The notes beneath the pieces are model-generated. The model made no database searches and was not told where the DNA came from. It was given only the letters and a program-made list of their open reading frames with translations. Below are positions 28,001-52,761 of a DNA stretch of 55,345 nucleotides, in pieces. The position numbers and the translations under genes were made by a program. The stretch's first letter is position 1; every line of letters starts with the position of its first letter. This DNA is from Candidatus Limnocylindrales bacterium (GTDB taxonomy: Bacteria; Chloroflexota; Limnocylindria; Limnocylindrales; CSP1-4), in the NCBI GenBank assembly GCA_038915165.1, contig JBCLDE010000004.1:1-55345 (forward strand). Reading direction: 5' to 3'.

Positions 28001-28353
28001 ACGGTCAGCAGCTCTCCAACGGCTCCGTGCTCAACTATCGGGTCCCGGAGTTCACCGACCTGCCGGACGAGGTTCGGACATTCGTCATCGAGAACCGCGA
28101 CGGGATGGGCCCGTACGGCGCGAAGGCCCATGGCGACGGCAGCATGGCGACGGTCGTCCCGGCCGTCTCGAACGCGCTCCACGACGCGCTGGGCGTCCGG
28201 ATGCACCGCGCACCGTTCACCCCCGAGCGGGTCTGGCGGGCGTTGCGCGACCAGGCCGATGGCGTCCCACCCGATCCGCCGACGGGGATCCCGGGCTGGT
28301 GGACCGCCACGGAACATCCGGAAGCACATGGAGACGCACTTGACACCCGATGA
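25042..28353 (+). CDS. molybdenum hydroxylase, fused FAD-binding medium subunit + Mo-pterin large subunit (CoxM-CoxL fusion)
   Basis: Uninterrupted 1103-aa ORF. The first ~290 aa are CoxM-like ('YAGGSELLLAMKQG', 'DYKRHL'). A short linker leads into the large-subunit blocks ('VGRSVPRTDGRAKVTG', 'GGGFGAKS', 'SSYRGFGG'). Confidence 0.9.
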   Translation: MPHYPHPFRIAQPATLAEASELLLSGGPDATCYAGGSELLLAMKQGGLRYDTLIDLKTIPGLDTIEEHNDHLEIGALATHRTIARSPLVRAAFPLLARLEGRIANPRVRSTGTLGGNLCFAEPHSDPGTLLLVHDAVLHVAGPGMERAVPIAAFTAGPYETVLEPGEILRAIAIPTLAAGQLVGYRRVQQLEHRPMLGVAVRLDLDLARQRIVGSRLGVGASSPIPVRSEAAEAILLGDLDGIADRLPRAAEILADDADLLDDADGSADYKRHLIGVHLGRLVSGLIRGEDPEITGGRTRRSLKATIEEWEERRQHTPKPEFSVVGRSVPRTDGRAKVTGQAVYTADVVLPRMAHAKVLRSPVAHARILSIDTTAAKAVEGVLDVMVGSDLLTLKRHLFGHAIRDNAILAMDKVTYVGEPVVAVIAEDEPTAARAIELIHVAYDELEPVMTPEAALRPGAPLIHEEPHDFGHAPGHVNLAGRKFGTNQLTDDVVAWGDIDAAFARATTIVEGEYYYPMAFAYPLESYAAVVDHRGDEVTVHTNGQHTYTTRRDVADLFGLPLSRVRVITPFVGGGFGAKSYSKVEPLAAVCSWRVRRPVRVELTVEETVLTTRALDARVWLRTAADADGKLIARQARVLMNSGAFAQNSMLVSAKTSTRLVGPYGWDAVDIRVRAAYTNTSPASSYRGFGGAHASLPGEVQMDEMAERLGRDPVDYRLLNLVDRGHVFFPGKRPLHADVKGNLRLVAGGLDWPRKEPPGTGKGVALVVMDSGAVPVGRSEIRVHGDGSVTVLTGSAELGQGSQTILTMVAAEEFGLPMERVRIQMSDSGVTPYARTTGADRTTIMEGTTILLACRDAKEQLQEMAAEIWEIPAEEIELEKSGARNGDRTLPWGDIIGQYFQAPDMEVSGRGHIRPVGDWGLIPPSWENPIVGVRVATDAETGEWWATSLVDVADIGLAINPTLADGMDIGSMMQSLGIAMREQLVYDGQQLSNGSVLNYRVPEFTDLPDEVRTFVIENRDGMGPYGAKAHGDGSMATVVPAVSNALHDALGVRMHRAPFTPERVWRALRDQADGVPPDPPTGIPGWWTATEHPEAHGDALDTR

Positions 28354-29683
28354 CGTCGTCGCCCGGATCGACCCCCAGGAGGTCGTCGATCTTGCCCTTG
28401 CGCTCGGCAACATCGACAGCCCAACGGGCAGCGAGGGACCGGCCGGCCAGTTCGTGTTCGACTGGCTGGCGAGCCATGGATTCACGCCGCGCAAGTTCGC
28501 TTTGACGGAGGACCGCTTCAACGTGGCGGCCTGGCTGGAGGGGACCGGCGGCGGCCAGAGCCTGATCTTCAACTCCCATCTCGACACCACGCTCCGACCC
28601 GATGCCATCTGGTCGGCGCGCGACCCCCAGGATCCGCTCTATCACAGCGCGTGGGTCGAGGGCGACGAGATCTTCGGGGACGGCGTGGTCAACGACAAGG
28701 GCCCGATGGCGGCCTTCCTGATCGCCGCCAAGGCAATCCGCGAGAGCGGCTATCCCCTGGCGGGCGACCTCATCGTCAGCGCGGTCGCGGGCGAGATCTC
28801 ACGCGAGCCGATCGACGAGTTCCAAGGTCCGGGCTACCTCAGCAAGGATCTCGGGGCGCGCTTCATGGTCACCCACGGTGCGGTCGCCGATTACGCCCTC
28901 GTCGCGGAGGGGACCGGCTTCGGGATCGTCGGGGTCGAGCCGGGCAAGGCCCACTTCAAGGTCACCGTCTTCACGGACCAGCCGCGCTTCTATACGCCGT
29001 ACCTGCCCAGGCCGACGGGTCTCGCGGACGCGCCGAACGCGATCGTCCGAACGAGCGCCGTGATCGCCGCATTCGAACGCTGGGCGTACGACTACCAGAC
29101 CCAGATGACCTACGAAGGACCGACCGGGACGATCGTACCCAAGGCGAGCATCAACGCCATCCGGGCAGGCTATCCATACAACCTGACGAGCACACCCCAG
29201 CTGTGCTCCTTCTATGTCGACACGCGGATCCTCCCGGGCGCCAATCCGCTCGACCTGCGAGACGAGCTTCGCGACGTGCTCCGTGAGGTCGGCGTGCCGG
29301 GCACCGTCGAGCTCTTCCTGTACCGACCCGGCTTTGAGGCCATCGGTGCGGAACGGCTCATAGAGACGGTCCGCCGTTGCCACGACCAGGTGTTCAGCGA
29401 ACCGCCGCTTATCGTCGGGTCGCCGGTGACGAGCATGTGGCGCGACACGAATGCGTTCAACGAGCTTGGGATCCCGGCCATCAGCTACGCCCCACGGTCG
29501 ACGAGTCACGCCGCCCGCAAGGCGTTCAAGGTCAGGGACCTGACCGACGCGGCGCTGGTCTACGCCCGGATCGCGATGGACCTCTGTAACCAGCCACGCG
29601 AACGCTTCAGCCCGCTCGGCGCCCACATCAACGCGGCCATCGCCCAGAAGGTCGCCGACCGCCGCGCATCTCGCGGGACCTGA
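28328..29683 (+). CDS. M20/ArgE/DapE-family metallo-deacylase (N-carbamoyl/N-acyl amino acid amidohydrolase-like)
   Basis: 'FNSHLDTT' (H-x-D Zn motif) and 'GDGVVNDKGPMAAF'. Start trimmed to ATG 28328 ('METHLTPDD'), overlapping the upstream gene by 26 nt. Confidence 0.75.
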   Translation: METHLTPDDVVARIDPQEVVDLALALGNIDSPTGSEGPAGQFVFDWLASHGFTPRKFALTEDRFNVAAWLEGTGGGQSLIFNSHLDTTLRPDAIWSARDPQDPLYHSAWVEGDEIFGDGVVNDKGPMAAFLIAAKAIRESGYPLAGDLIVSAVAGEISREPIDEFQGPGYLSKDLGARFMVTHGAVADYALVAEGTGFGIVGVEPGKAHFKVTVFTDQPRFYTPYLPRPTGLADAPNAIVRTSAVIAAFERWAYDYQTQMTYEGPTGTIVPKASINAIRAGYPYNLTSTPQLCSFYVDTRILPGANPLDLRDELRDVLREVGVPGTVELFLYRPGFEAIGAERLIETVRRCHDQVFSEPPLIVGSPVTSMWRDTNAFNELGIPAISYAPRSTSHAARKAFKVRDLTDAALVYARIAMDLCNQPRERFSPLGAHINAAIAQKVADRRASRGT

Positions 29684-40965: not shown

Positions 40966-41001
40966 TCCATCCAGCCGGCGCACACAGGTGAGTTGAAACG
41001 C

Positions 41002-42366
41002 ATGTGCGGAACGACAGACTCCCCAGAACTCGAGGCCCGGATGGAGCCGGGCCCCGCCCGTGGGGTCCGGCGGGTCGTCGACGTCAACGACCTCCTGGAG
41101 ACCGCTCGCCATGTCGCCCACTCCGACGAGGTCCGGCGCACCGCGGCGGGCTTCATCGGGTACGGCGCGACAGGCCCCGGACAACGCGTCCTGATCGGCG
41201 TCGATACCCAGACCGACCCCGCGATCACCGATGCGATCGCCGCCGCCCTGCGGGAGATGGGGGCCTCGGTTGACGTCGTCATCGCCCAGGCCGAGGCCGA
41301 CCGCGTGTTCGACGATCTCGACGAGATCAAGGTCGCCATCCGCCGCCAGCCGTGGGTGGAGAACCCACGCCGGTGGGAAGGGACGCCGTGGATCGAGGAC
41401 CTCGCAAGGACCCGCGGCTACGACCTGCTGATCCACGGCAAGGGCGGCGCGATCCCGAAGGTCTCGCACCGCTACGAGGGGTTCCCATGGGTGGTCACCG
41501 ACCACTTCGACGGCCCCTCGAATCTCTTCCCGCGGGCGCTCCACCGTCTGATCAACGAGCGGACCTGGTCGCGCATCACCGATCACGCCGGATCTCGCCT
41601 CCGCCTCACCGATCCCGAGGGGACGAACCTCTCGCTGACGATCCTGGCCGAGCCGCTCCGCGACACGACGCGACACGACTACGGGATGTCGCCCAAGTGG
41701 GGCCACCTCATGGCCCATCCCCCCACCCCGATCGAGCCGACCGACGACTCGACGGGCACGATCGCCGGCACCCTCAACCACTTCAGCCGGCCATTCCCCC
41801 GGATCGAGGTCCAGGTCGAGAACGCCCGGATGACCGGGATCCGCGGCGGCGGAGTCTACGGCGATGCATGGCGCGACCTCGAGGCCGAGGCCAAGGACAT
41901 CCAGTACCCGTGCTTCCCCGCCCCTGGCCTCTTCTGGCTCTGGGAGCTGGCGATCGGCACGAACCCCAAGATCGTCCGCCCGGGTAACATCCGCTACCTG
42001 TCGTCGGGCGGGTTCGAATGGGAGCGTCGCCGAGCCGGGATCATCCATTGCGGCCTCGGCACGCGCTGGCGGAGCTCCGAGGAGGTCTGGGCCGGCGAGC
42101 GCCGGCTGGTGTACGGCCACCTCCATGTCCACCTGCTCTCCCCCACCCTGATCGTCGAAACGCCGAAGGGCGACGTCCCGGTCATCGAGGGCGGGCGGCT
42201 GTCGGCCTACGACGACCCGGATGTCCGCGACCTCGCGGCCACGTTCGGCGACCCGGACCAGCTCCTGCACGACGACTGGGTTCCGGAGATCCCCGGGATC
42301 ACGGTGCCCGGCGACTACGCCGAGTACGCCAGGGACCCATCACGCTGGATCTACGCGAATGCCTGA
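41002..42366 (+). CDS. M29 aminopeptidase-fold protein, possibly NicX-like (2,5-dihydroxypyridine dioxygenase-like)
   Basis: Blocks 'LRLTDPEGTNLSLT', 'WELAIGTNPKI', 'IHCGLGT' and 'GHLHVHLL' resemble AmpS/PepS/NicX-family blocks as I recall them. ATG 41002 lies 9 nt after 'AGGTGAG'. Assignment is tentative. Confidence 0.5.
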   Translation: MCGTTDSPELEARMEPGPARGVRRVVDVNDLLETARHVAHSDEVRRTAAGFIGYGATGPGQRVLIGVDTQTDPAITDAIAAALREMGASVDVVIAQAEADRVFDDLDEIKVAIRRQPWVENPRRWEGTPWIEDLARTRGYDLLIHGKGGAIPKVSHRYEGFPWVVTDHFDGPSNLFPRALHRLINERTWSRITDHAGSRLRLTDPEGTNLSLTILAEPLRDTTRHDYGMSPKWGHLMAHPPTPIEPTDDSTGTIAGTLNHFSRPFPRIEVQVENARMTGIRGGGVYGDAWRDLEAEAKDIQYPCFPAPGLFWLWELAIGTNPKIVRPGNIRYLSSGGFEWERRRAGIIHCGLGTRWRSSEEVWAGERRLVYGHLHVHLLSPTLIVETPKGDVPVIEGGRLSAYDDPDVRDLAATFGDPDQLLHDDWVPEIPGITVPGDYAEYARDPSRWIYANA

Positions 42367-44794: not shown

Positions 44795-45769
44795 ATGGCC
44801 ACCCGTTTCGGCCTTCTCGTCCCCCACTTCGGGATCGAGGCTGACCAGGACCTGCTGATCGAGGGATCCCAGCTCGCCGACCGGCTCGGGTTCGACTCGC
44901 TCTGGGTTCGCGACCACCTCGTCTTCCACCCGCACGGGATGGAGGGCACCGATCGGACGTTCGTCGAGCCGCTCGTCACGCTGACCTACCTCGCCGCCAG
45001 GACCGAGCGGATCGGGCTCGGGGCCGCGACGATCATCCCGTTCCGCCATCCGATCTACCTCGCCTACAGCATCGCGTCGATGTCGTGGATGACCCGCCGC
45101 CGGTTCGAGCTGGGCATCGGCGCCGGCAACTTCCAGCACGAGTTCGACGTGATCGCCCAGGGCGACGTCGACCGGCCGGCGATGATGCGCGAGCAGACGC
45201 AGATCGCCCGCGCTCTGTGGACCGGCGAGAGCGTCGAGTGGCAGAGCGAGTTGTACAACTTCAAGGACGTCGACCTGAAGCCACAGCCGCTCTTCCCGGT
45301 GCCGGTCTGGTGGGGCGGCGCGACGCCCGCCTCGGTCAGGCTGGCGGTCGACTTCTGTGACGGCTGGCTGCCGGGGCGGATCACCTTCCCGACGTACGAG
45401 GTCCGGGTCGCCAAGGCCCGCGAACTGGCCGCCGAACAGGGCAAGCCGATGATCATGGTCGGCGCCGTGCCGGTCACCTCGATCGCCGATACGCGCGAGG
45501 AGGCGATTGGGCACATGAATGTGGCGGGCCTGATCGACAACGCCAACCACCAGAAGTTCTGGCTCAAGCCGGAGGGCGGGCAGTTCACGACCTTCGAGGA
45601 GCTCGACGGCTCCGTCCTGGCCGGCACGCCGGACGACATCGTCCGCGGTATCCAGCGCTACCAGGAGATCGGCGCCGACCTCCTGATCATCGACTTCCGG
45701 ATGCGCTTCCCGGACTGGCTCGAGCAGATCGAACGATTCGCCCGTGAGGTCCTCCCGCGCGTCTCATGA
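44795..45769 (+). CDS. LLM-class (luciferase-like) F420/flavin-dependent oxidoreductase
   Basis: 'GFDSLWVRDHL', 'TERIGLGAATIIPFRHP' and 'RFELGIGAG'. 'AAGGAG' SD-like sequence upstream. Confidence 0.8.
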   Translation: MATRFGLLVPHFGIEADQDLLIEGSQLADRLGFDSLWVRDHLVFHPHGMEGTDRTFVEPLVTLTYLAARTERIGLGAATIIPFRHPIYLAYSIASMSWMTRRRFELGIGAGNFQHEFDVIAQGDVDRPAMMREQTQIARALWTGESVEWQSELYNFKDVDLKPQPLFPVPVWWGGATPASVRLAVDFCDGWLPGRITFPTYEVRVAKARELAAEQGKPMIMVGAVPVTSIADTREEAIGHMNVAGLIDNANHQKFWLKPEGGQFTTFEELDGSVLAGTPDDIVRGIQRYQEIGADLLIIDFRMRFPDWLEQIERFAREVLPRVS

Positions 45770-47469
45770 CGACCACATCGGCCTGGTATGGATCCGACCT
45801 CCTGGCCGACCGATTGGCCGGCCTGGGGATCGAGCACGTGGCCCTCAACCCCGGTGCGTCGATCCGGGGCTTCCACGACTCACTGGTCAATCCGCCCGGC
45901 CGAAGCCCGAACCTCGTGCTCGCGCTGCACGAAGGGATCGCGGTCGCCATCGCCCACGGCTATGCCAAGGCCGCGGGCCGCCCCATGGCCGTCGGCCTCC
46001 ACGACACGGTCGGGCTGCTGCATGCGAGCATGGCGATCTTCAACGCCTGGGCCGACCGCGCGCCGATGATCCTCGTCGTGGGCACGGGACCCCTGGACAC
46101 CGCCCGGCGGCGGCCGTACCTCGACTGGATCCACACCGCGGGCGAACAGGGTGAGTTCGTCCGTCATCTGACGGTCTGGAACGAGCAGCCGACGAGCGCC
46201 GAGGCGCTCCTGACGACGACGGTCAGGGCCTGGCGCGCCGCCCGGAGCACTCCCGGCGGCCCTGCCCTGATCGGCCTCGATATCGACCTCCAGGAGCAGG
46301 CCGTCGAGGCGCCAGCCCAGCCGGACCTGACCTTCCGGCTCGATGTCGCCAGGATCGGGCCGGACCCGGTCCTCATCGATGAACTCGCCCGCGACCTCAA
46401 GGCGTCCAAGCGACCGTTGCTGATCACGGACCGCCCGCTCTCTGCCGAGGGTTCGGCGTCGCTCCTCAGACTGGCCGATCAGCTGGGCGCCGGCCTCGTC
46501 GAACTGGGCGGCGGTGCGTCCTTCCCGGTCGGACACCCGCACGACGTGAGTGAAGGGACGCTCGAGGCCCTGCGGGCAGCCGATCACGTCACATTCATCG
46601 ACGTTCGCGACCCGGCCTTCGCCCTTGGGTCCGTCAACCTCGCGACGCGGCAGATGGAGGGCCTCGAGCACCTCCCGACGATGGCGAGCATCGGCCTCGG
46701 CAGCCTGATGGATCGCTCGTGGATCGTCACCGAATCGATGGGCCCCGAGCGCCTCGACATCATTGCCGACCCGGCCCTCGCCCTGGAACAGCTGGTCGAC
46801 GCCATCGGCACGGTGCGACGACCCCTCGACCCGGCGTTCGAGGCGATCGCCGCGAAACCGGCGCCGGCGCCCCCGGCAGCGTTGTCGAACGCGCGCGGGC
46901 TCCATCGCGGACACGTCGGGCGTGCCCTCGCCGATGCGCTCGGGGGAACGGACTGGGTGCTCGCCCACGGGCAGTTCGGTGGCTGGGCGCGGCGGACGCT
47001 GCGGTTCCAGCAGCCCGGCCAGTTCCTCGGTCGGTCCGGCGGCGAAGGCTTGGGCTACGGACCCGGCGCGGCGATCGGGGCCGCCCTCGCGTTGCGTGGA
47101 TCGGGCAAGATGGTCATCAGTCTCCAGGGCGACGGAGACCTGCTCTACACGCCGCAGGCCCTCTGGACGGCGGCCCACGACGGCCTTCCGCTCCTCATGG
47201 TCGTGGACGCGAACCGGACCTACGGCAAGGACGAGCTTCACCAGCGGGTCATGGCCAGGGAACGTGGACGATCCGAGGCGAACGTCGGGCGCGGGATCAC
47301 CATCGACGAGCCGACGATCGATCTGGCCGGCCTCGCCCGCTCCCTCGGGATCGCCGCCGAGGGCCCGATCGAGGAGCCAGGGGATCTGAAACTGGCCTTC
47401 CAGCGCGCCGTCGCGAGGGTCAAGGCCGGCGAACCGGCCGTCGTGGAGGTTCGGACATCCCCGGACTGA
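45766..47469 (+). CDS. thiamine-diphosphate-dependent enzyme (acetolactate synthase/benzoylformate decarboxylase-like)
   Basis: N-terminal PYR domain with catalytic-Glu context 'LALHEGIAVAIAHGYA'. C-terminal ThDP motif 'GDGDLLYTPQALWTAAHDGLPLLMVVDAN'. ATGA overlap with the upstream LLM gene. Confidence 0.85.
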   Translation: MTTTSAWYGSDLLADRLAGLGIEHVALNPGASIRGFHDSLVNPPGRSPNLVLALHEGIAVAIAHGYAKAAGRPMAVGLHDTVGLLHASMAIFNAWADRAPMILVVGTGPLDTARRRPYLDWIHTAGEQGEFVRHLTVWNEQPTSAEALLTTTVRAWRAARSTPGGPALIGLDIDLQEQAVEAPAQPDLTFRLDVARIGPDPVLIDELARDLKASKRPLLITDRPLSAEGSASLLRLADQLGAGLVELGGGASFPVGHPHDVSEGTLEALRAADHVTFIDVRDPAFALGSVNLATRQMEGLEHLPTMASIGLGSLMDRSWIVTESMGPERLDIIADPALALEQLVDAIGTVRRPLDPAFEAIAAKPAPAPPAALSNARGLHRGHVGRALADALGGTDWVLAHGQFGGWARRTLRFQQPGQFLGRSGGEGLGYGPGAAIGAALALRGSGKMVISLQGDGDLLYTPQALWTAAHDGLPLLMVVDANRTYGKDELHQRVMARERGRSEANVGRGITIDEPTIDLAGLARSLGIAAEGPIEEPGDLKLAFQRAVARVKAGEPAVVEVRTSPD

Positions 47470-47604
47470 GCGCGTTCCGGCACGCCGGCGACCCGCCCCC
47501 CCGTGGCGCGGGATCGGGTTGTGTACAATGGAACACAGACCTCCGCACGCTGCGTTTCGACAGGCTCGCAGGTGGCCAACCCCCACGACGCATAAGGTTC
47601 TGCC

Positions 47605-47973
47605 ATGTCGTCAGAGATTCACGTCGGACAAGCCTCGGACCTCGCCGACGGTCAGCGCCTGATGGTCCGACTCGACGGCAGGGACGTCTTCATCTTCGAG
47701 CGCGAAGGCAAGCTCTACGCCTTCGAGAATCTCTGTCGCCACATGGGCGGGCCCGTCGGTGAGGGGATCCTCATCGGCAAGGTCGAATCCATCCTGGATG
47801 AGAATCAGGCCCACGTTCGCGACCGTTTCAGCCCCACGGAGATCCACCTGGTCTGCCCGTGGCACGGCTGGGAGTACGACATCGAGACCGGCGAATGCGC
47901 CGCGAACCGCCGGTTGAAGCTACGCAGGTACCAAGCGGTCCAGCGTGGGGAGGACATCTATGTCATCGCCTGA
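47605..47973 (+). CDS. Rieske [2Fe-2S] domain protein (small, NirD/ferredoxin-like)
   Basis: 'CRHMGGPV' (CxH) and 'CPWHGWEY' (CxxH) motifs. 122 aa. Confidence 0.85.
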   Translation: MSSEIHVGQASDLADGQRLMVRLDGRDVFIFEREGKLYAFENLCRHMGGPVGEGILIGKVESILDENQAHVRDRFSPTEIHLVCPWHGWEYDIETGECAANRRLKLRRYQAVQRGEDIYVIA

Positions 47974-48265
47974 AGCGGCGGCGGACCAGGAGCTCGCGGC
48001 GGACGCCGCCCGTATCCTGGCCCAGGCAGACCGCATCCTGTCGGAGGGCCGCATCGCGGACGTCCCGGATGTCGCGGTCCAGCAGCTCCTGCTGGCCGCG
48101 GTGCGTCTCTTCTCCGCCAAACGAGACCAGGGCGATCGTCTGGAGGCCTTCGGGGCCAACGCGGTCACCGCGACGGATGTGGCGGTGACGGCGGTGGCCA
48201 TGACCGAGGCCGTCAACCTCGAACTCTTCGAGCTCGCCCTCTGGAACGGCTGGAGCAACATCTAG
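47960..48265 (+). CDS. hypothetical small acidic Ala-rich protein (101 aa)
   Basis: High third-position GC. ATG 47960 overlaps the Rieske gene end by 14 nt, and its TAG lies 4 nt before the next ATG. I recognise no family. Confidence 0.55.
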   Translation: MSSPEAAADQELAADAARILAQADRILSEGRIADVPDVAVQQLLLAAVRLFSAKRDQGDRLEAFGANAVTATDVAVTAVAMTEAVNLELFELALWNGWSNI

Positions 48266-48269
48266 TCCC

Positions 48270-49481
48270 ATGAAGACGATCGATACCGCCGGCGGCAGCG
48301 TCGAGCCGCGCACGTTCAACACCGGTGAGCGGGCAGGCTACAACACGCGCCTCCATCTCGAGCACGCGAAGCGCCAGGCCGAGGAGCGTGGCTTCAAGGA
48401 CATCCTCATCGTCGATTCGGACGCCCATCAGCTCAACGAGATGACCTATTTCCAGGACATCGCGAAGTACATCGACGACGAGGTCCTCCGCCACGAGGTC
48501 TTCAACGGCGAGGGCGGCAAGCTGATGTACCCGGGCTTCAGGGGCCCGCAGCACCAGAGCTTGGCCGGCCGGCTCGTGCGCTATCGACATGAGCACCTGG
48601 AGGACCTCAAGTCGGAGGTCCCGCCAGAGGTCGAGTTCTCACGCCGCCAGATGAACGCGATCGGCATCGACTACCAGGTCGTCTTCCCAACGGCGCTCCT
48701 GTCCCTCGGGATGCATCCCGATCCGAATGTCGAGACCGCCATGGCGTGGGCGTACACCCGCTGGCTGACCGAGGAGATCCTGCCCCACGCTCCGCACGTC
48801 AAGACGATGGTCTACCTGCCGATGAACCAGCCCGAGGCCTGTCTGAAGTTCGTCGAGCAGTTCGGCGACCGCCCGGGCGTGGTCGGGTTCATGGTGACCT
48901 CGGCCCGCTACCGGCCGGTCCATGCCAACGAGTACATGCGCCTGTACGGTGCGCTGCAGGAGCGTGGACTGCCGCTCTGCTTCCACGCGATCTATCACCA
49001 GCAGGAGCGCATGTTCGAGGGGATGAACAAGTTCCTCTCGATCCACGCCCTCGGGTTCATCTTCTACAACCTGGTCCACATGACGAATATGGTGATCAAC
49101 GGGATCCCGGAGCGCTTCCCGAAGCTGAAACTGCTCTGGATCGAGAGCGGCCTCGCCTGGATCCCGTTCCTGATGCAACGGCTCGACAACGAATACATGA
49201 TGCGATCATCAGAGGCTCCGCTGCTCAAGAAGCTGCCGAGCGACTACATGCGCGAGATGTTCTACACGACGCAGCCGATCGAGAACGGCGATCTCGAGTT
49301 GCTCGAGCTGACGCTCAAGAAGATCAACGCCGAGACCCAGTTGCTCTTCTCCTCGGACTACCCGCATTGGGACTTCAACCTCCCGAGCACCATCTATGAT
49401 CTGCCGTTCCTGTCGGAGAACGCGAAACGGCGAATCCTCGGAACGAACGCGTGGGACCTGTTCCAGCTCGACCGCCGCTAG
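48270..49481 (+). CDS. amidohydrolase_2 family (ACMSD/LigW/PicC-like metal-dependent decarboxylase or hydrolase)
   Basis: 'ILIVDSDAHQ' (N-terminal metal ligands) and C-terminal 'FSSDYPHWDF'. 403 aa. Confidence 0.8.
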   Translation: MKTIDTAGGSVEPRTFNTGERAGYNTRLHLEHAKRQAEERGFKDILIVDSDAHQLNEMTYFQDIAKYIDDEVLRHEVFNGEGGKLMYPGFRGPQHQSLAGRLVRYRHEHLEDLKSEVPPEVEFSRRQMNAIGIDYQVVFPTALLSLGMHPDPNVETAMAWAYTRWLTEEILPHAPHVKTMVYLPMNQPEACLKFVEQFGDRPGVVGFMVTSARYRPVHANEYMRLYGALQERGLPLCFHAIYHQQERMFEGMNKFLSIHALGFIFYNLVHMTNMVINGIPERFPKLKLLWIESGLAWIPFLMQRLDNEYMMRSSEAPLLKKLPSDYMREMFYTTQPIENGDLELLELTLKKINAETQLLFSSDYPHWDFNLPSTIYDLPFLSENAKRRILGTNAWDLFQLDRR

Positions 49482-49580: not shown

Positions 49581-50627
49581 ATGAAGACCACCACCCAGAC
49601 CCAGGTCACCCATTACGAGGTCCAGAAGAAGCGGCGCGCCTCATTGCTCGAGGAATGGCGCGGCTATCAGAAGACCGTCATGCGCCGGGCCGACGTCGTG
49701 ATGCACGACGACCCGTTCCGGCGGATGCGGCGCGGGGTCTTCGCGGGCCACGACGGCGACCGCCCGACGATGAACCTCGACGCCTCGATCCACGAGATCG
49801 GGGCGAACACCACGAGCACGATCCACCGCCACTCGTGGGACGCGATCATGTTCATCGAGAACGGGACGGGCTGGACCGAGATCGAAGGGCAGCGCATCGA
49901 CTGGCGACCGTGGGACACGCTCCACCTGCCGGCCTGGGCATGGCATCGCCACGGCAACGATGGCGAGGCTCCGGCGACCTTCCATACCTGGAGCGTCCAG
50001 CCGATGCTCCAGCAGTTCGGCGTCGCCCTCCTCGAGGAGGGCGGCGACACGCCGGTCAAGGACCTTCCCCCGCGCCCGAAGCAGGTCGCTCCCCTGCCCG
50101 GCTCTGACCCGTATGCCCGGCGGACGCAGCGCCTCGCAAGCCAGTGGGAGGGCGCCGAGAGCGCGCGTCTGGTGACCCGCTTCGACGACGTTCGCGGGCT
50201 GGTCACGAAGCGCGGGGCGCGCAGCCTCTTCCTCGTCGACAAGTCGATCGGCTACCACACCGCCGGCCTCTCCGCGGTCATGCACGAGCTGGCGCCGGGG
50301 CTCTACCAGTCGCGCCACCGCCACGGCGGCGAGGCCTGGCTCTATGCCGTCTCGGGCACGGGCTACAGCATCGTCGACGACGTTCGCCACGATTGGGAGG
50401 CGGGCGACCTGATCGTCGTCGACCACTGGGCGTGGCACCAGCATTTCAACGCCAGCAACGAGCGGACGGCGCGGCTCATCCGGGTCCACAACTTCGACGC
50501 CCTGTACGACATGATGCGCGTCCTGATGGACCCGATGAGCCTGTTCGAGGAGCTACCCGTCCTGGATGCGCCGGACCTCTCGGGGATCGTCTGGCCGGAC
50601 CATCTCGCGGGCCGGCCGAAGGCATAG
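49581..50627 (+). CDS. bicupin dioxygenase (gentisate/salicylate 1,2-dioxygenase-like)
   Basis: Two cupin modules: 'HRHSWDAIMFIENGTGWTEIEGQRIDWRPWDTLHLPAWAWHRHGN' and 'HRHGGEAWLYAVSGTGYSIVDDVRHDWEAGDLIVVDHWAWHQHFN'. 'GGAGGA' SD-like sequence upstream. Confidence 0.8.
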   Translation: MKTTTQTQVTHYEVQKKRRASLLEEWRGYQKTVMRRADVVMHDDPFRRMRRGVFAGHDGDRPTMNLDASIHEIGANTTSTIHRHSWDAIMFIENGTGWTEIEGQRIDWRPWDTLHLPAWAWHRHGNDGEAPATFHTWSVQPMLQQFGVALLEEGGDTPVKDLPPRPKQVAPLPGSDPYARRTQRLASQWEGAESARLVTRFDDVRGLVTKRGARSLFLVDKSIGYHTAGLSAVMHELAPGLYQSRHRHGGEAWLYAVSGTGYSIVDDVRHDWEAGDLIVVDHWAWHQHFNASNERTARLIRVHNFDALYDMMRVLMDPMSLFEELPVLDAPDLSGIVWPDHLAGRPKA

Positions 50628-50629
50628 GC

Positions 50630-51517
50630 GTGCCGACCATCGCCATCCCGCCCGGGATCGAGGGGATCGTCGGGATCACCGAGCTGCCCGATCCGGCGTT
50701 CGCCGATCGGTGGGACCGGATCATCGTGGCCGACGCGCTCAAGGAACGGCTGCTCAACTACCTCGTCTTCTCGCTCCGCCATCGGGGCCGGTTGAGCGCC
50801 GTGGCGATGCCGGTCCACGGCCTGGTGATCCTGTCCGGCCCACCCGGGACCGGGAAGACGACGCTGGCCGGCGGCCTCGCCGACCGGGTGGCCCGCGAGC
50901 TGGATGAACCGATCCTGTTCGTCGACATCAATCCACACGCCTTCCCCAGTCAGCTGCTCGGCGAGAGCCAACGAAGCGTCGCACGCCTTTTCGAGCGGAC
51001 CCTCCCCGATCTCGCCGCTCGAGGCGTCACCACGGTCGTCCTGCTCGACGAGGTCGAGGCGATGGCCGTGAATCGCGCGGGGGCGTCGTTGGACACGAAC
51101 CCGGTCGACGTCCACCGGGCGACCGAGGCCGTCCTGTCCGGGGTCGACTTCGTGGCCCGGACCTGTCCCGGCGTGACGTTCGTGGCCACGACCAACTACA
51201 TCGCGGGCGTCGACGTCGCCTTCCTCTCGCGAGCCGACATCATCGAGGAGCTCAGCTACCCGGACGCCGCCGCCGTCCATTCGATCCTCGTCGATACGCT
51301 GCGCGAGCTGACCGATCGGCCGCTCGACGAGACGGCCCTGCTCGGTCTCGCCGAGCATTGCGCGGCCGCGAAGATCGACGCCCGGCAGGTTCGAAAGCTC
51401 GTCCTGCGCGCGATCTGCGACCAGCGCGAGCTGGCCCTCGATCCGGGGGCGATCAGCGTGCGGGACGTCGAGGCGACCTTCAACAACCAGCGGGGACGCC
51501 TGGAGTCGGCGATCTGA
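50630..51517 (+). CDS. TRIP13/Pch2 (bacterial Cap6)-type AAA+ ATPase
   Basis: 'WDRIIVADALKERLLNYL', Walker A 'LSGPPGTGKTTLA', 'DINPHAFPSQLLGESQRSVARLF', Walker B 'VVLLDEVEAM' and 'TTNYIAGVDVAFLSRADI' line up block-for-block with TRIP13 as I recall it. GTG 50630 lies 2 nt after the bicupin stop. Confidence 0.8.
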   Translation: MPTIAIPPGIEGIVGITELPDPAFADRWDRIIVADALKERLLNYLVFSLRHRGRLSAVAMPVHGLVILSGPPGTGKTTLAGGLADRVARELDEPILFVDINPHAFPSQLLGESQRSVARLFERTLPDLAARGVTTVVLLDEVEAMAVNRAGASLDTNPVDVHRATEAVLSGVDFVARTCPGVTFVATTNYIAGVDVAFLSRADIIEELSYPDAAAVHSILVDTLRELTDRPLDETALLGLAEHCAAAKIDARQVRKLVLRAICDQRELALDPGAISVRDVEATFNNQRGRLESAI

Positions 51518-52761
51518 TGGCCGGCCCTCGGGCCGGATCCGACGAGCCGGTCGCGCCGGCGATCCCGATCCAGGCCATCCTCGTGTCGATCGCCGTCTTC
51601 GCCTTCGTCGCGGCCACGAACATCCTCACCCCGCTCCTGCCACTCGTCCGCGACGAGCTGGGGGTGAGCATCTCGACCGCGGGACTGATCGTCGGTTCGT
51701 ATGGCCTCGCACGCCTGATCGTCGACCTGCCGGCGGGCTTTCTCGCCGAGGCGGTCGGATACCGTCGGCTCAGCGTCATCGCGATCGTCCTCCTGTTCGG
51801 AAGCTCGCTCCTTGGATTCGAAGCGGGCAACGTCGAGATGCTGATCGCGGTCCGGATCGGGAGCGGCGCCGCCGTGGCGATGCTCGCGATGGTCTGCATC
51901 TCCGCACTCGCGGCCACCGCGACGAGCGCCACGCGCGGACGGGTCATGAGCCTCTTCCACCTCGCCAACAACGCGGGTATCGCGCTCTATCCGCTCATCG
52001 GCGGTTTCGTCGGGGCGGCCGTCGGCTGGCGGCCGACCTTCCTCATCGCTGCGGCGCTCGCCCTCGTCGCCGGCGCGATCCTCATCGCCGTCCTGCCGCG
52101 CATCGACTTCAGCCACGCGGACAACCGCGGCGGCCGCGACGACGCGAGCCGGGTCCTGCACGGCCGGGCCCGGACGACGACGATGATCGTCACGAACTTC
52201 GGGATCGTGGCCAACATGATCCATCGCCACGGCATCCGGAACACAATCGTGCCGCTCTACGCGGCCGCCGCGCTGGGCCTCGGCGGCGTGTCAATCGCGA
52301 CCGCGATCGCGCTGATGGCGATCACCGGCCTCATCGTCGCGACACCGGGCGGGATGCTCGGCGACCGTGTCGGCCGGCGACGCGTGATCGTGGCCGGTCT
52401 GTCCGCCCTCGCGGTCGCGGACCTGGCCTTCCTGCTGACCAACGACCTCGCGACCTTCCTGATCGTCGCTGCCGTCGTCGGCCTCGGCGACTTCTTCACG
52501 AGCAGTCAGACGGCGCTCCTCTCGGAGATCGTGCCGGCCGCCGACCGTAACCGTTCGCTCAGTGGCTATCGGTTCTCGTCGGACCTCGGCTCGATGATCG
52601 GCCCGATCCTCCTCGCGGCCACCATGGACGCGATCAGTGCGCAGGCGGCGATCATCCTGGCCGCCGTCATCCTGGGGGTCGCTGCCATCACGGCCCATCT
52701 CTTCATCCCGGCCCAGGTGGACACGACTGACCGCGACGCTGCGGCTCCGCTCACGGCATGA
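51517..52761 (+). CDS. MFS transporter
   Basis: 12-TM-type profile. Loop motif 'PAGFLAEAVGYRR'. ATG 51517 overlaps the ATPase stop (TGATG). Confidence 0.8.
   Translation: MAGPRAGSDEPVAPAIPIQAILVSIAVFAFVAATNILTPLLPLVRDELGVSISTAGLIVGSYGLARLIVDLPAGFLAEAVGYRRLSVIAIVLLFGSSLLGFEAGNVEMLIAVRIGSGAAVAMLAMVCISALAATATSATRGRVMSLFHLANNAGIALYPLIGGFVGAAVGWRPTFLIAAALALVAGAILIAVLPRIDFSHADNRGGRDDASRVLHGRARTTTMIVTNFGIVANMIHRHGIRNTIVPLYAAAALGLGGVSIATAIALMAITGLIVATPGGMLGDRVGRRRVIVAGLSALAVADLAFLLTNDLATFLIVAAVVGLGDFFTSSQTALLSEIVPAADRNRSLSGYRFSSDLGSMIGPILLAATMDAISAQAAIILAAVILGVAAITAHLFIPAQVDTTDRDAAAPLTA

Follow-up and report, generated by a model that had tools for sequence, protein, structure and literature searches.

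A TRIP13-family AAA+ ATPase encoded beside a gentisate dioxygenase-like bicupin: a candidate remodeller of a metabolic enzyme

The AAA+ ATPases of the TRIP13/Pch2/Cap6 family are regarded as dedicated remodellers of HORMA-domain proteins, acting in eukaryotic checkpoints and in the bacterial immunity provided by the cyclic-oligonucleotide-based antiphage signalling system (CBASS). The present study concerns a member of this family encoded in a 55,345-nt stretch of DNA (contig JBCLDE010000004.1 of assembly GCA_038915165.1; the whole stretch is referred to as the window) from a Candidatus Limnocylindrales bacterium of the Chloroflexota. The gene directly follows that of a bicupin, a two-domain cupin protein resembling gentisate and salicylate dioxygenases, and the same pairing recurs in every testable relative located outside a CBASS operon.

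The locus and its AAA+ ATPase

The 295-aa open reading frame (ORF) on which the original prediction was based, running from a GTG at 50630 to a TGA ending at 51517 on the plus strand, is present as described, as are the junctions reported on either side of it. The bicupin gene terminates with TAG at 50625-50627, 2 nt before the ATPase GTG, and the stop codon of the ATPase gene overlaps the start codon of a major facilitator superfamily (MFS) transporter gene. A Shine-Dalgarno-like element, GAAGG, lies at 50618-50622, 5' of the ATPase start. The features of the bicupin and ATPase genes are as follows.

50630..51517, plus strand: TRIP13/Cap6-family AAA+ ATPase, 295 aa, without the eukaryotic N-terminal domain
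50837..50860, plus strand: Walker A motif GPPGTGKT of the ATPase, residues 70-77, with G70, G73, G75 and K76 invariant in the family alignment
50942..50974, plus strand: pore loop 1 region FPSQLLGESQR, residues 105-115, aligning to an 11-residue TRIP13 segment
51035..51118, plus strand: Walker B motif VVLLDEVE (residues 136-143), then the pore loop 2 region NRAGASLDTNPVDVHR (residues 148-163)
50618..50632, plus strand: translational-coupling junction, read directly from the sequence as GAAGG, TAG, a 2-nt spacer and GTG
51515..51519, plus strand: TGATG overlap between the ATPase stop (TGA, 51515-51517) and the MFS start (ATG, 51517-51519)
49581..50627, plus strand: bicupin with two Cupin_2 domains (Pfam), 348 aa
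49581..49610, plus strand: disordered Thr-rich bicupin tail MKTTTQTQVT, residues 1-10, the proposed pore-engagement tail
49611..49667, plus strand: anchor helix HYEVQKKRRASLLEEWRGY, bicupin residues 11-29, right after the tail
49824..49952, plus strand: candidate His metal site of the N-terminal cupin, H82-R-H84 ... W-H122-R-H124, invariant in the bicupin alignment and in a 56-locus alignment
50316..50444, plus strand: candidate His metal site of the C-terminal cupin, H246-R-H248 ... W-H286-Q-H288, invariant in the bicupin alignment
50592..50618, plus strand: C-terminal bicupin motif W338-P-x(3-6)-R345-P346, found in 174/177 bicupins

The window ATPase belongs to the TRIP13/Pch2/Cap6 family, as is evident from profile, PDB sequence and fold matches and from its identity to the Cap6 proteins of CBASS operons. 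The PADLOC TRIP13 model PDLC00915 matched residues 11-287 of the ATPase along model positions 11-291 of 302 (E 1e-86, 289 bits), the runners-up being the other TRIP13 model, PDLC00914, at 61 bits and the next family, IetA, at 57 bits. Pfam returned a generic AAA domain only (E 2e-17), and a scan of NCBIfam yielded no specific model, its generic AAA matches all lying far below their cut-offs. When PDB sequences were searched with phmmer, human TRIP13 was matched at E 3e-26 (query residues 19-228), Caenorhabditis elegans PCH-2 at 2e-25 and Cdc48 at 1.6e-19, and the alignment to human TRIP13 reproduced the same blocks that had been matched by eye in the original prediction. An AlphaFold2 (AF2) model of the ATPase was built from 41 family sequences and had a predicted local distance difference test (pLDDT) score of 94.8; with this model as the query, Foldseek ranks 1-18 against the PDB were all occupied by TRIP13, PCH-2, Escherichia coli MS115-1 Trip13 (6P8V) or Rhizobiales Trip13. 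Identity to Cap6 proteins of true HORMA/CD-NTase operons was 38-47%. The ATPase thus places with the TRIP13 family rather than in another AAA+ clade, the outcome that had been named as contrary to the prediction, and neither the Rca nor the CbbX family was among its matches in the Pfam, NCBIfam, PDB-sequence or Foldseek searches.

The catalytic motifs are intact. Walker A is common to both cupin-linked clades described below, to the CBASS clade and to human TRIP13. Within the Walker B and pore loop 2 regions, E141, R149 and D160 are invariant and D140, E143, N157, P158 and R163 nearly so, and sensor 1 (TTN, N189), the Arg finger (SRAD, R201) and sensor 2 (ARQVRK, R252/R255) are likewise invariant or nearly invariant. 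The pore loop 2 signature NP[VI]DVHR[AS]T was sufficiently distinctive for members of the family to be recovered with it from metagenomes. In pore loop 1, S107 and G111 are nearly invariant in the family alignment, and the consensus is PHAFPSQLLGESQR in the cupin clade versus PHaLxSsxLGrSQ in CBASS Cap6; the confidence of the AF2 model is lower here (residues 101-110, mean pLDDT 75). The residues that follow Walker B are also clade specific, reading DEVE-x-x-AV-x-R in the cupin clades versus DEVETLAADR in CBASS. The motif set of the 2-HORMA Pch2 has been described by Ye et al., and that account explains why PDLC00915 and eukaryotic TRIP13 resemble the window ATPase while E. coli Trip13 does not. 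Both genes of the pair are under purifying selection, with ratios of nonsynonymous to synonymous substitution rates (dN/dS) of 0.16-0.29 for the ATPase and 0.10-0.21 for the bicupin. The best explanation of these sequence features is that the ATPase is an active, hexamer-forming AAA+ remodeller.

The ATPase is not a CBASS component, since the partners required in such an operon are missing. As had been observed from the sequence alone, no HORMA protein, CD-NTase or nuclease effector was found: a PADLOC scan of the 47 predicted proteins of the window at E<=1e-5 detected no HORMA, cyclase, SAVED or nuclease effector, and the sole match beyond the ATPase was to a generic oxidoreductase model. HORMA and CD-NTase genes were equally absent from 91 cupin-clade loci, and the full CBASS set was recovered from the positive controls (L010-L012 and L160). 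HORMA and CD-NTase genes therefore never adjoin the close homologues of the window ATPase, the reverse of an arrangement that had been raised as a potential objection to the prediction.

Pairing of the ATPase with a bicupin

A word-indexed search recovered 3,607 homologues of the ATPase at E<=1e-10, the best 120 of which were 66-100% identical to it and included several from metagenome-assembled genomes (MAGs) of Candidatus Limnocylindrales/Limnocylindria (Chloroflexota); some Joint Genome Institute (JGI) records call the homologue "pachytene checkpoint protein 2." Long contigs bearing a 66-74% identical ATPase all displayed the order bicupin (348 aa), ATPase, MFS transporter and M20 peptidase, with an S15-type hydrolase, Amidohydro_1 and a luciferase-like monooxygenase upstream and with GntR regulators and NMT1-type ATP-binding cassette (ABC) transporters nearby. 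A scan of species-representative genomes keyed on the Walker A peptide returned mostly unrelated AAA+ genes and at least seven true relatives (L006-L012). Among the matches listed, those of Herpetosiphon giganteus (L010), Rhizobiales bacterium CCH3-A5 (L011) and a Dormibacteraeota MAG (L012) were 38-41% identical to the window ATPase and were followed by two HORMA genes, a CD-NTase and a SAVED effector, i.e., the type III CBASS set (the L012 cyclase being located by tblastn). Those of a Burkholderiales MAG, Actinoallomurus acaciae, Mycolicibacterium wolinskyi and an Actinomycetota MAG, also among the matches listed, were 46-49% identical, and each of these four was immediately preceded by a Cupin_2 bicupin of approximately 355 aa. 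A metagenome scan seeded with the C-terminal alignment motifs NP[VI]DVHR[AS]T and D[GA]R[QR][VI]RK[LM]V[LA] confirmed 564 relatives, of which the best 80, with 43-88% identity over the whole ATPase, were kept.

The pooled set comprised 91 non-CBASS loci with the ATPase, 68 of which were testable in that they retained at least 300 nt of upstream sequence. A bicupin gene was located directly upstream on the same strand in 68/68 of these; in each of the 12 pooled loci without a bicupin match, the sequence available 5' of the ATPase was shorter than 260 nt. In 55 loci, the ATPase alignment began a median of 5 nt after the bicupin stop, and at no more than 60 nt from it in 54. The neighborhood survey suggested in the original prediction thus found the bicupin linkage to be recurrent, and the description of the ATPase as an orphan does not hold, given this constant upstream partner; the MFS half of the reported bicupin/MFS linkage did not extend beyond the subclade of the window. 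Pairing spans ATPase identities of 43-88%, several phyla and many soil metagenomes, its carriers including Limnocylindria-type Chloroflexota, Mycolicibacterium wolinskyi, Actinoallomurus acaciae, a Sphaerisporangium MAG, an Acidimicrobiaceae MAG and a Burkholderiales MAG. Two further deep cupin-linked clades were represented by L157, in which a bicupin, the ATPase, a second bicupin and an MFS transporter follow one another, and by L159. A 47% identical ATPase (P0136, locus L160) was found inside a complete CBASS operon with Cap8, bacHORMA_2, TIR-SAVED and SMODS genes, so that the window ATPase is about equally close to genuine Cap6 and to the second cupin-linked clade and is, therefore, a true member of the family. 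The family accordingly shows two mutually exclusive genomic contexts, CBASS or bicupin linked. The pairing is best explained as an ancient two-gene, translationally coupled module, and the ATPase very probably functions with the bicupin and not in defence.

Sequence and predicted fold place the bicupin, as an outlying member, in the gentisate/salicylate 1,2-dioxygenase family. Among PDB sequences, its top match was the Silicibacter gentisate dioxygenase (GDO) 3BU7 (E 1e-17), and the structure comparison proposed in the original prediction, carried out with an AF2 model of pLDDT 82.8, placed salicylate dioxygenases (SDO) and GDO at the top of the Foldseek matches. Equivalog cut-offs were not reached, the scores being 63.9 bits versus 442 for TIGR02272 and 77.9 versus 650 for NF049978 (5-aminosalicylate dioxygenase). 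Both candidate His sites align with the HRH...WHEH motifs present in each domain of 3BU7, and because HRH...WH-x-H is invariant in the two cupin domains, the bicupin looks like a working metal enzyme. It is also more conserved than the ATPase (60-93% versus 45-88% identity). The C-terminal WP...RP motif may represent a docking element. In the anchor helix, which the AF2 model also places at residues 11-29, H11, Y12, Q15, K16, R18 and R19 are invariant and W26 nearly so in the bicupin alignment. The alignment to GDO 3BU7 begins only at bicupin residue 20, which makes the tail and the first part of the helix specific to the bicupin family.

The tail that precedes this helix is conserved in kind and predicted to be disordered, residues 1-10 being modelled by AF2 as coil with a mean pLDDT of 52. 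Tails of the same type occur in every cupin-linked clade, i.e., MKTTTQTQVTHYEVQKKRR in the window, MSTKTTTAVTHYHIQKKRR in clade B, MARQRTETRTTHYEIQKKRR in L157 and MATRTRTETTHWHVQWERR in L159. Across 166 distinct bicupin N-termini, a segment of 10-16 residues precedes the invariant H-[YW]-x-[IV]-Q anchor, and the frequency of Ser or Thr relative to the anchor His is 1.00 at -1, 0.92 at -4, 0.90 at -6 and 0.81 at -8, compared with approximately 0.1 at -2, -3 and -9. The tail is absent from the second bicupin paralogues of the same loci, and T-x-T-x-T occurred within the first 14 residues of 0/152 other proteins of the window and neighboring loci. The only homologue found without an adjacent ATPase gene (P0366, L154 8001-9047) is a bicupin 66% identical to that of the window, with no ATPase within 8 kb and an ABC transporter following it; its tail is degenerate (VNAETTARPTHY), and W-S replaces W-P in its C-terminal motif. 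This single case, which is only suggestive, may represent a natural uncoupling of the pair.

Tails of this kind are also found on the established type of client. The CBASS operons closest to the window ATPase encode bacHORMA_2 proteins with the N-termini MSTAVRVNTYTQSVTYV, MTSVTVNTYTHSVTYV, MSTAVRVNTSVYAVTHIV and (L)STHTYTLTQTRTEVYV, which are T-periodic in the same manner as the bicupin tails, and cupin-linked and CBASS ATPases have very similar pore-loop sequences. In the E. coli CdnC:HORMA:Pch2(EQ) structure solved by Ye et al., Ser/Thr side chains at alternate positions bond pore loop 2; the same authors reported that Ser/Thr is kept at every second position of HORMA N-termini and that deletion of the N-terminus abolishes Pch2 action. 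The simplest reading, by analogy, is that the bicupin would offer its ATPase the same handle that HORMA2-type proteins offer Cap6.

All neighbors other than the bicupin-ATPase pair, which is the sole constant, depend on the clade. In the window clade (56-88% identity) the order is monooxygenase, bicupin, ATPase, MFS and M20; the downstream MFS gene is present in L001-L005 and in most loci with a 56-88% identical ATPase and is absent from the 43-53% identity clade. In the latter clade, TctC and TctA tricarboxylate-type transporters account for 16 and 6 of 106 neighboring proteins, respectively, accompanied by solute-binding proteins, IclR, EutA-like, Amidohydro_2, isochorismatase-family amidases and molybdenum hydroxylase subunits; molybdenum hydroxylases flank the module in further contigs too. 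From knowledge of these families, we infer that the neighbors belong to pathways for the uptake and degradation of aromatic or N-heteroaromatic carboxylic acids. The neighbor run reported in the original prediction (Rieske, small ORF, amidohydrolase_2, bicupin, ATPase and MFS) was reproduced by Pfam annotation of the window, in which the following further features were assigned.

44795..45769, plus strand: luciferase-like monooxygenase (Pfam), 78% identical to the L001 monooxygenase
45766-47469: thiamine pyrophosphate (TPP)-dependent enzyme, at the start of the block separating the monooxygenase from the bicupin
47605-47973: Rieske protein (Pfam)
47945-48265: small ORF of 106 aa, without an assigned family, overlapping the 3' end of the Rieske gene
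48270-49481: Amidohydro_2 protein (Pfam)
51517..52761, plus strand: MFS transporter (MFS_1, E 8e-54)

A second monooxygenase was annotated by Pfam downstream of the ATPase region. Unlike the window, most relatives carry the monooxygenase directly upstream of the bicupin; in the window, a block encoding the TPP enzyme, the Rieske protein, the 106-aa ORF and Amidohydro_2 (45766-49481) is inserted between the two. This block is complete only in L077, and L078 and L074, where it is cut by the contig end, show the Amidohydro_2 end only. The window M20 peptidase (28340-29683) is 77% identical to the M20 located directly 3' of the MFS gene in L001 and other relatives and lies 21 kb upstream of the module instead of after the MFS gene, and the conserved operon has, therefore, been rearranged in the window. 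The 106-aa ORF, with a counterpart in L077 that is 78% conserved from end to end, probably encodes a real lineage-specific small protein. The suggestion that it might be a HORMA protein, or a universal partner of the ATPase, was rejected: it had no Pfam, PADLOC or NCBIfam match, it is too short (HORMA proteins in L010-L012 measure 158-171 aa) and it is kept only in L077. A 457-aa ORF at 40993-42366, immediately 5' of the S15-type hydrolase located ahead of the catabolic genes, has a strong coding signal (a G+C fraction at third codon positions of 0.90) and no Pfam match at E<=1e-4.

Several further observations concern the relatives. A TPP enzyme 36-45% identical to that of the window lies near the module in L007, L118, L130, L133, L146, L154 and L155 and may be a second, semi-conserved pathway component. 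EutA-like proteins (PF06277, to which the ethanolamine ammonia-lyase reactivase belongs) are encoded in five clade B/P0100 neighborhoods, in the P0100 contigs beside a second cupin of 367 aa, and NicO nickel-transporter-like genes occur in three neighborhoods. ATPases of 33-38% identity with C-terminal extensions of 200-300 residues were also seen (P0230, P0235, P0236, P0248, P0250, P0260, P0265 and P0270), the five extensions scanned (P0230, P0235, P0236, P0248 and P0265) matching no Pfam family, as were N-terminal extensions of approximately 100 residues (P0124, P0163, P0171, P0211, P0214 and P0233). P0202 (658 aa) was considered as a possible bicupin-ATPase fusion, the two segments being visible by BLAST, and was discarded, as it gave no Cupin_2 Pfam match and only a fragmentary AAA domain. 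It and P0199 (366 aa), an apparent Cap6 and HORMA chimera, are probably frameshift or gene-calling artefacts, and fusion is not used as evidence here.

Proposed mechanism and competing explanations

We propose, from sequence and by analogy, that the ATPase is dedicated to remodelling the bicupin and acts by tail threading in an activase, maturation or reset role, a reading that we hold with slightly more belief than doubt. The iron-type, gentisate/salicylate-dioxygenase-like bicupin, and not a HORMA protein, would be its client. The ATPase ring would capture the MKTTTQTQVT tail in its central pore, much as Cap6 and TRIP13 capture the HORMA N-terminus, and a few rounds of ATP-driven translocation would then pull on the following helix (residues 11-29, HYxVQKKRR...), so that the bicupin would be locally unfolded or dissociated. 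As a result, the bicupin might be reset, through release of a trapped ligand or of a wrongly oxidised or wrong metal, or its metal site or oligomer might be matured. The purpose of this action is the least secure part of the proposal; a role in activation, maturation or reset is favoured over inactivation because the genes are presumed to be co-expressed in a catabolic operon and because the known AAA+ partners of metabolic enzymes act in this way. Rubisco activase, for example, draws the RbcL N-terminal tail into its pore and thereby reopens the active site (bioRxiv 10.1101/2020.05.16.099382).

Several considerations weigh against this proposal. The mechanism is drawn wholly from gene linkage and sequence analogy, and the known TRIP13 and Cap6 proteins switch complexes off, which makes the sign of the effect proposed here a guess. 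The known systems need an adaptor, p31comet or CD-NTase, and none was identified for the window ATPase. Thr periodicity of the tail is imperfect, with Ser/Thr frequencies of 0.61-0.66 at -5 and -7 as well, in a sample of 166 N-termini dominated by one clade. The bicupin may, furthermore, function alone, as L154 suggests within the 8 kb seen around that locus, and, to our knowledge, the characterised GDO and SDO enzymes work without any ATPase.

Acting on the same client with the opposite sign, the ATPase could disassemble or inactivate the bicupin oligomer when substrate is absent, thus limiting uncoupled oxygen chemistry. The pairing and the tail fit such a function equally well, and the characterised Pch2 and TRIP13 proteins catalytically dissociate and inactivate complexes, comparable to the action of Cap6 on CD-NTase:HORMA. 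However, it would be wasteful for a catabolic operon to couple an enzyme translationally to its own inactivator, and the known AAA+ partners of metabolic enzymes, i.e., the Rubisco activases, activate; negative regulation is, in our view, unlikely.

The client could also be another operon enzyme, the transporter or a HORMA-like protein encoded elsewhere, with the bicupin linkage reflecting co-regulation only. The bicupin alone, however, is universal, immediately upstream, on the same strand and tightly spaced, the other neighbors being clade specific, and it bears the type of tail that is gripped by this ATPase family; neither the window nor any cupin-linked locus yielded a HORMA protein. Although the pairing is known here from gene linkage and not from physical contact, and although recurrent, non-universal neighbors exist (the TPP enzyme in at least seven loci and EutA-like proteins in five), a different client appears distinctly improbable.

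That the ATPase is a decayed or orphaned CBASS Cap6, or belongs to a non-canonical defence module with the bicupin as its sensor, is very improbable despite its strongest annotated profile match being to a defence-system model, as its motifs are intact and under purifying selection, the pairing holds in all 68 testable loci across phyla, the surrounding genes encode transporters, hydrolases, oxidoreductases and GntR/IclR regulators and are not of a defence or mobile type, and the bicupin outdoes the ATPase in conservation and keeps both candidate His metal sites, as expected of an enzyme. The original prediction had offered a decayed or re-purposed defence component as one option and an enzyme activase or chaperone as another. 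Decay is ruled out by the intact motifs and the dN/dS values, in keeping with the wide conservation of the gene, and the evidence favours a combination of the remaining options, that is, a re-purposed family member serving an enzyme.

The ATPase family itself is known, and what appears to be new is the association of a TRIP13-type remodeller with a non-HORMA, enzymatic partner. A search of full-text literature, with many subscription journals outside its coverage, returned no account of TRIP13, Pch2 or Cap6 paired with a cupin or gentisate-type dioxygenase or acting as its activase. If the proposed activase, maturation or reset role of the ATPase is correct, a large and conserved bacterial lineage tied to a metabolic enzyme would widen the set of clients served by these motors, a new class of activase or reset factor for non-haem iron dioxygenases would be defined and a simple two-protein bacterial system would become available for the study of tail-based substrate choice by TRIP13-type pores. 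Where defence hidden Markov models return a lone TRIP13 match in Chloroflexota or Actinomycetota from soil, it should not be taken for a remnant of CBASS, and heterologous expression of this dioxygenase family for biodegradation may need co-expression of the ATPase. At least two strains available in culture, Mycolicibacterium wolinskyi ATCC 700010 and Actinoallomurus acaciae TBRC 0563, carry the module, which is, therefore, directly testable.

Comparison with known systems

The phylogenetic check suggested in the original prediction was performed by neighbor joining with 100 bootstraps, using distant outgroups and a partial human TRIP13 sequence. The window clade (92/100), the second cupin clade (99/100) and the CBASS set (77/100) were each recovered, whereas neither a single cupin-linked clade (5/100) nor the order of the deep branches was. 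The CBASS Cap6 group and the human TRIP13 fragment branch between the cupin-linked groups, which is a hint, from sequence comparison, that enzyme servicing may be the older function. It is conceivable, if quite unlikely, that ring-cleaving bicupin dioxygenases, recognised via Thr-periodic N-terminal tails, constitute a second, HORMA-independent client class, that servicing them is maybe the older role, and that HORMA remodelling in phage defence, with eukaryotic checkpoints following later, was derived from a metabolic enzyme activase.

A close known counterpart is the Cap6 of type III CBASS of the 2-HORMA subtype (PDLC00915; L010, L011, L012 and L160), which belongs to the same family at 38-47% identity, is approximately 300 aa long, lacks an N-terminal domain and has identical Walker, sensor and Arg-finger motifs and a near-identical pore loop 2 (NPxDVHRATDA); the proposed substrates of the two share a disordered N-terminal tail with Ser/Thr periodicity. 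They differ in that the HORMA genes lie downstream in CBASS, whereas here a bicupin lies upstream and HORMA, CD-NTase and effector genes are lacking, and in that the context here is catabolic instead of a defence island. Sequence differences include DEVExxAVxR here versus DEVETLAADR and, in pore loop 1, FPSQLLGES here versus LxSsxLGrS.

Eukaryotic TRIP13 and PCH-2 are the best solved relatives and, like the window ATPase, combine large and small AAA+ domains with the same set of motifs. The N-terminal adaptor-binding domain of approximately 100-120 residues is, however, missing here: the alignment starts at approximately TRIP13 residue 114-128, and the AF2 model has only a short strand and a helix ahead of the AAA+ core. 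Pore loop 1 contains Leu-Leu-Gly here versus Trp-Phe-Ser in TRIP13, and the client of TRIP13 is a HORMA protein recruited via p31comet, neither of which is present at this locus. The E. coli MS115-1 Trip13 (6P8V), the Cap6 of a 1-HORMA system, was the top Foldseek match (E 5e-17; template modelling score, 0.77), has the same length and architecture and shows in its own structure a substrate N-terminus gripped in the pore, but its identity to the window ATPase is approximately 22%, and its subtype model, PDLC00914, scored 61 bits versus 289 for PDLC00915.

The Rubisco activases Rca and CbbX offer a functional analogy only, each being an AAA+ hexamer devoted to one metabolic enzyme, frequently its gene neighbor, from which it pulls a terminal tail into the pore so that an inhibited active site is reopened; they belong to another AAA+ subfamily, serve another client and, in the searches above, showed no sequence relationship beyond the general AAA+ fold. 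Finally, the gentisate, salicylate and 5-aminosalicylate 1,2-dioxygenases share with the bicupin its fold and the HRH...WH-x-H motif in both domains and provide its best sequence and fold matches, whereas the bicupin is distinguished by its own N-terminal tail and helix, its C-terminal WP...RP motif and the ATPase gene that follows it.

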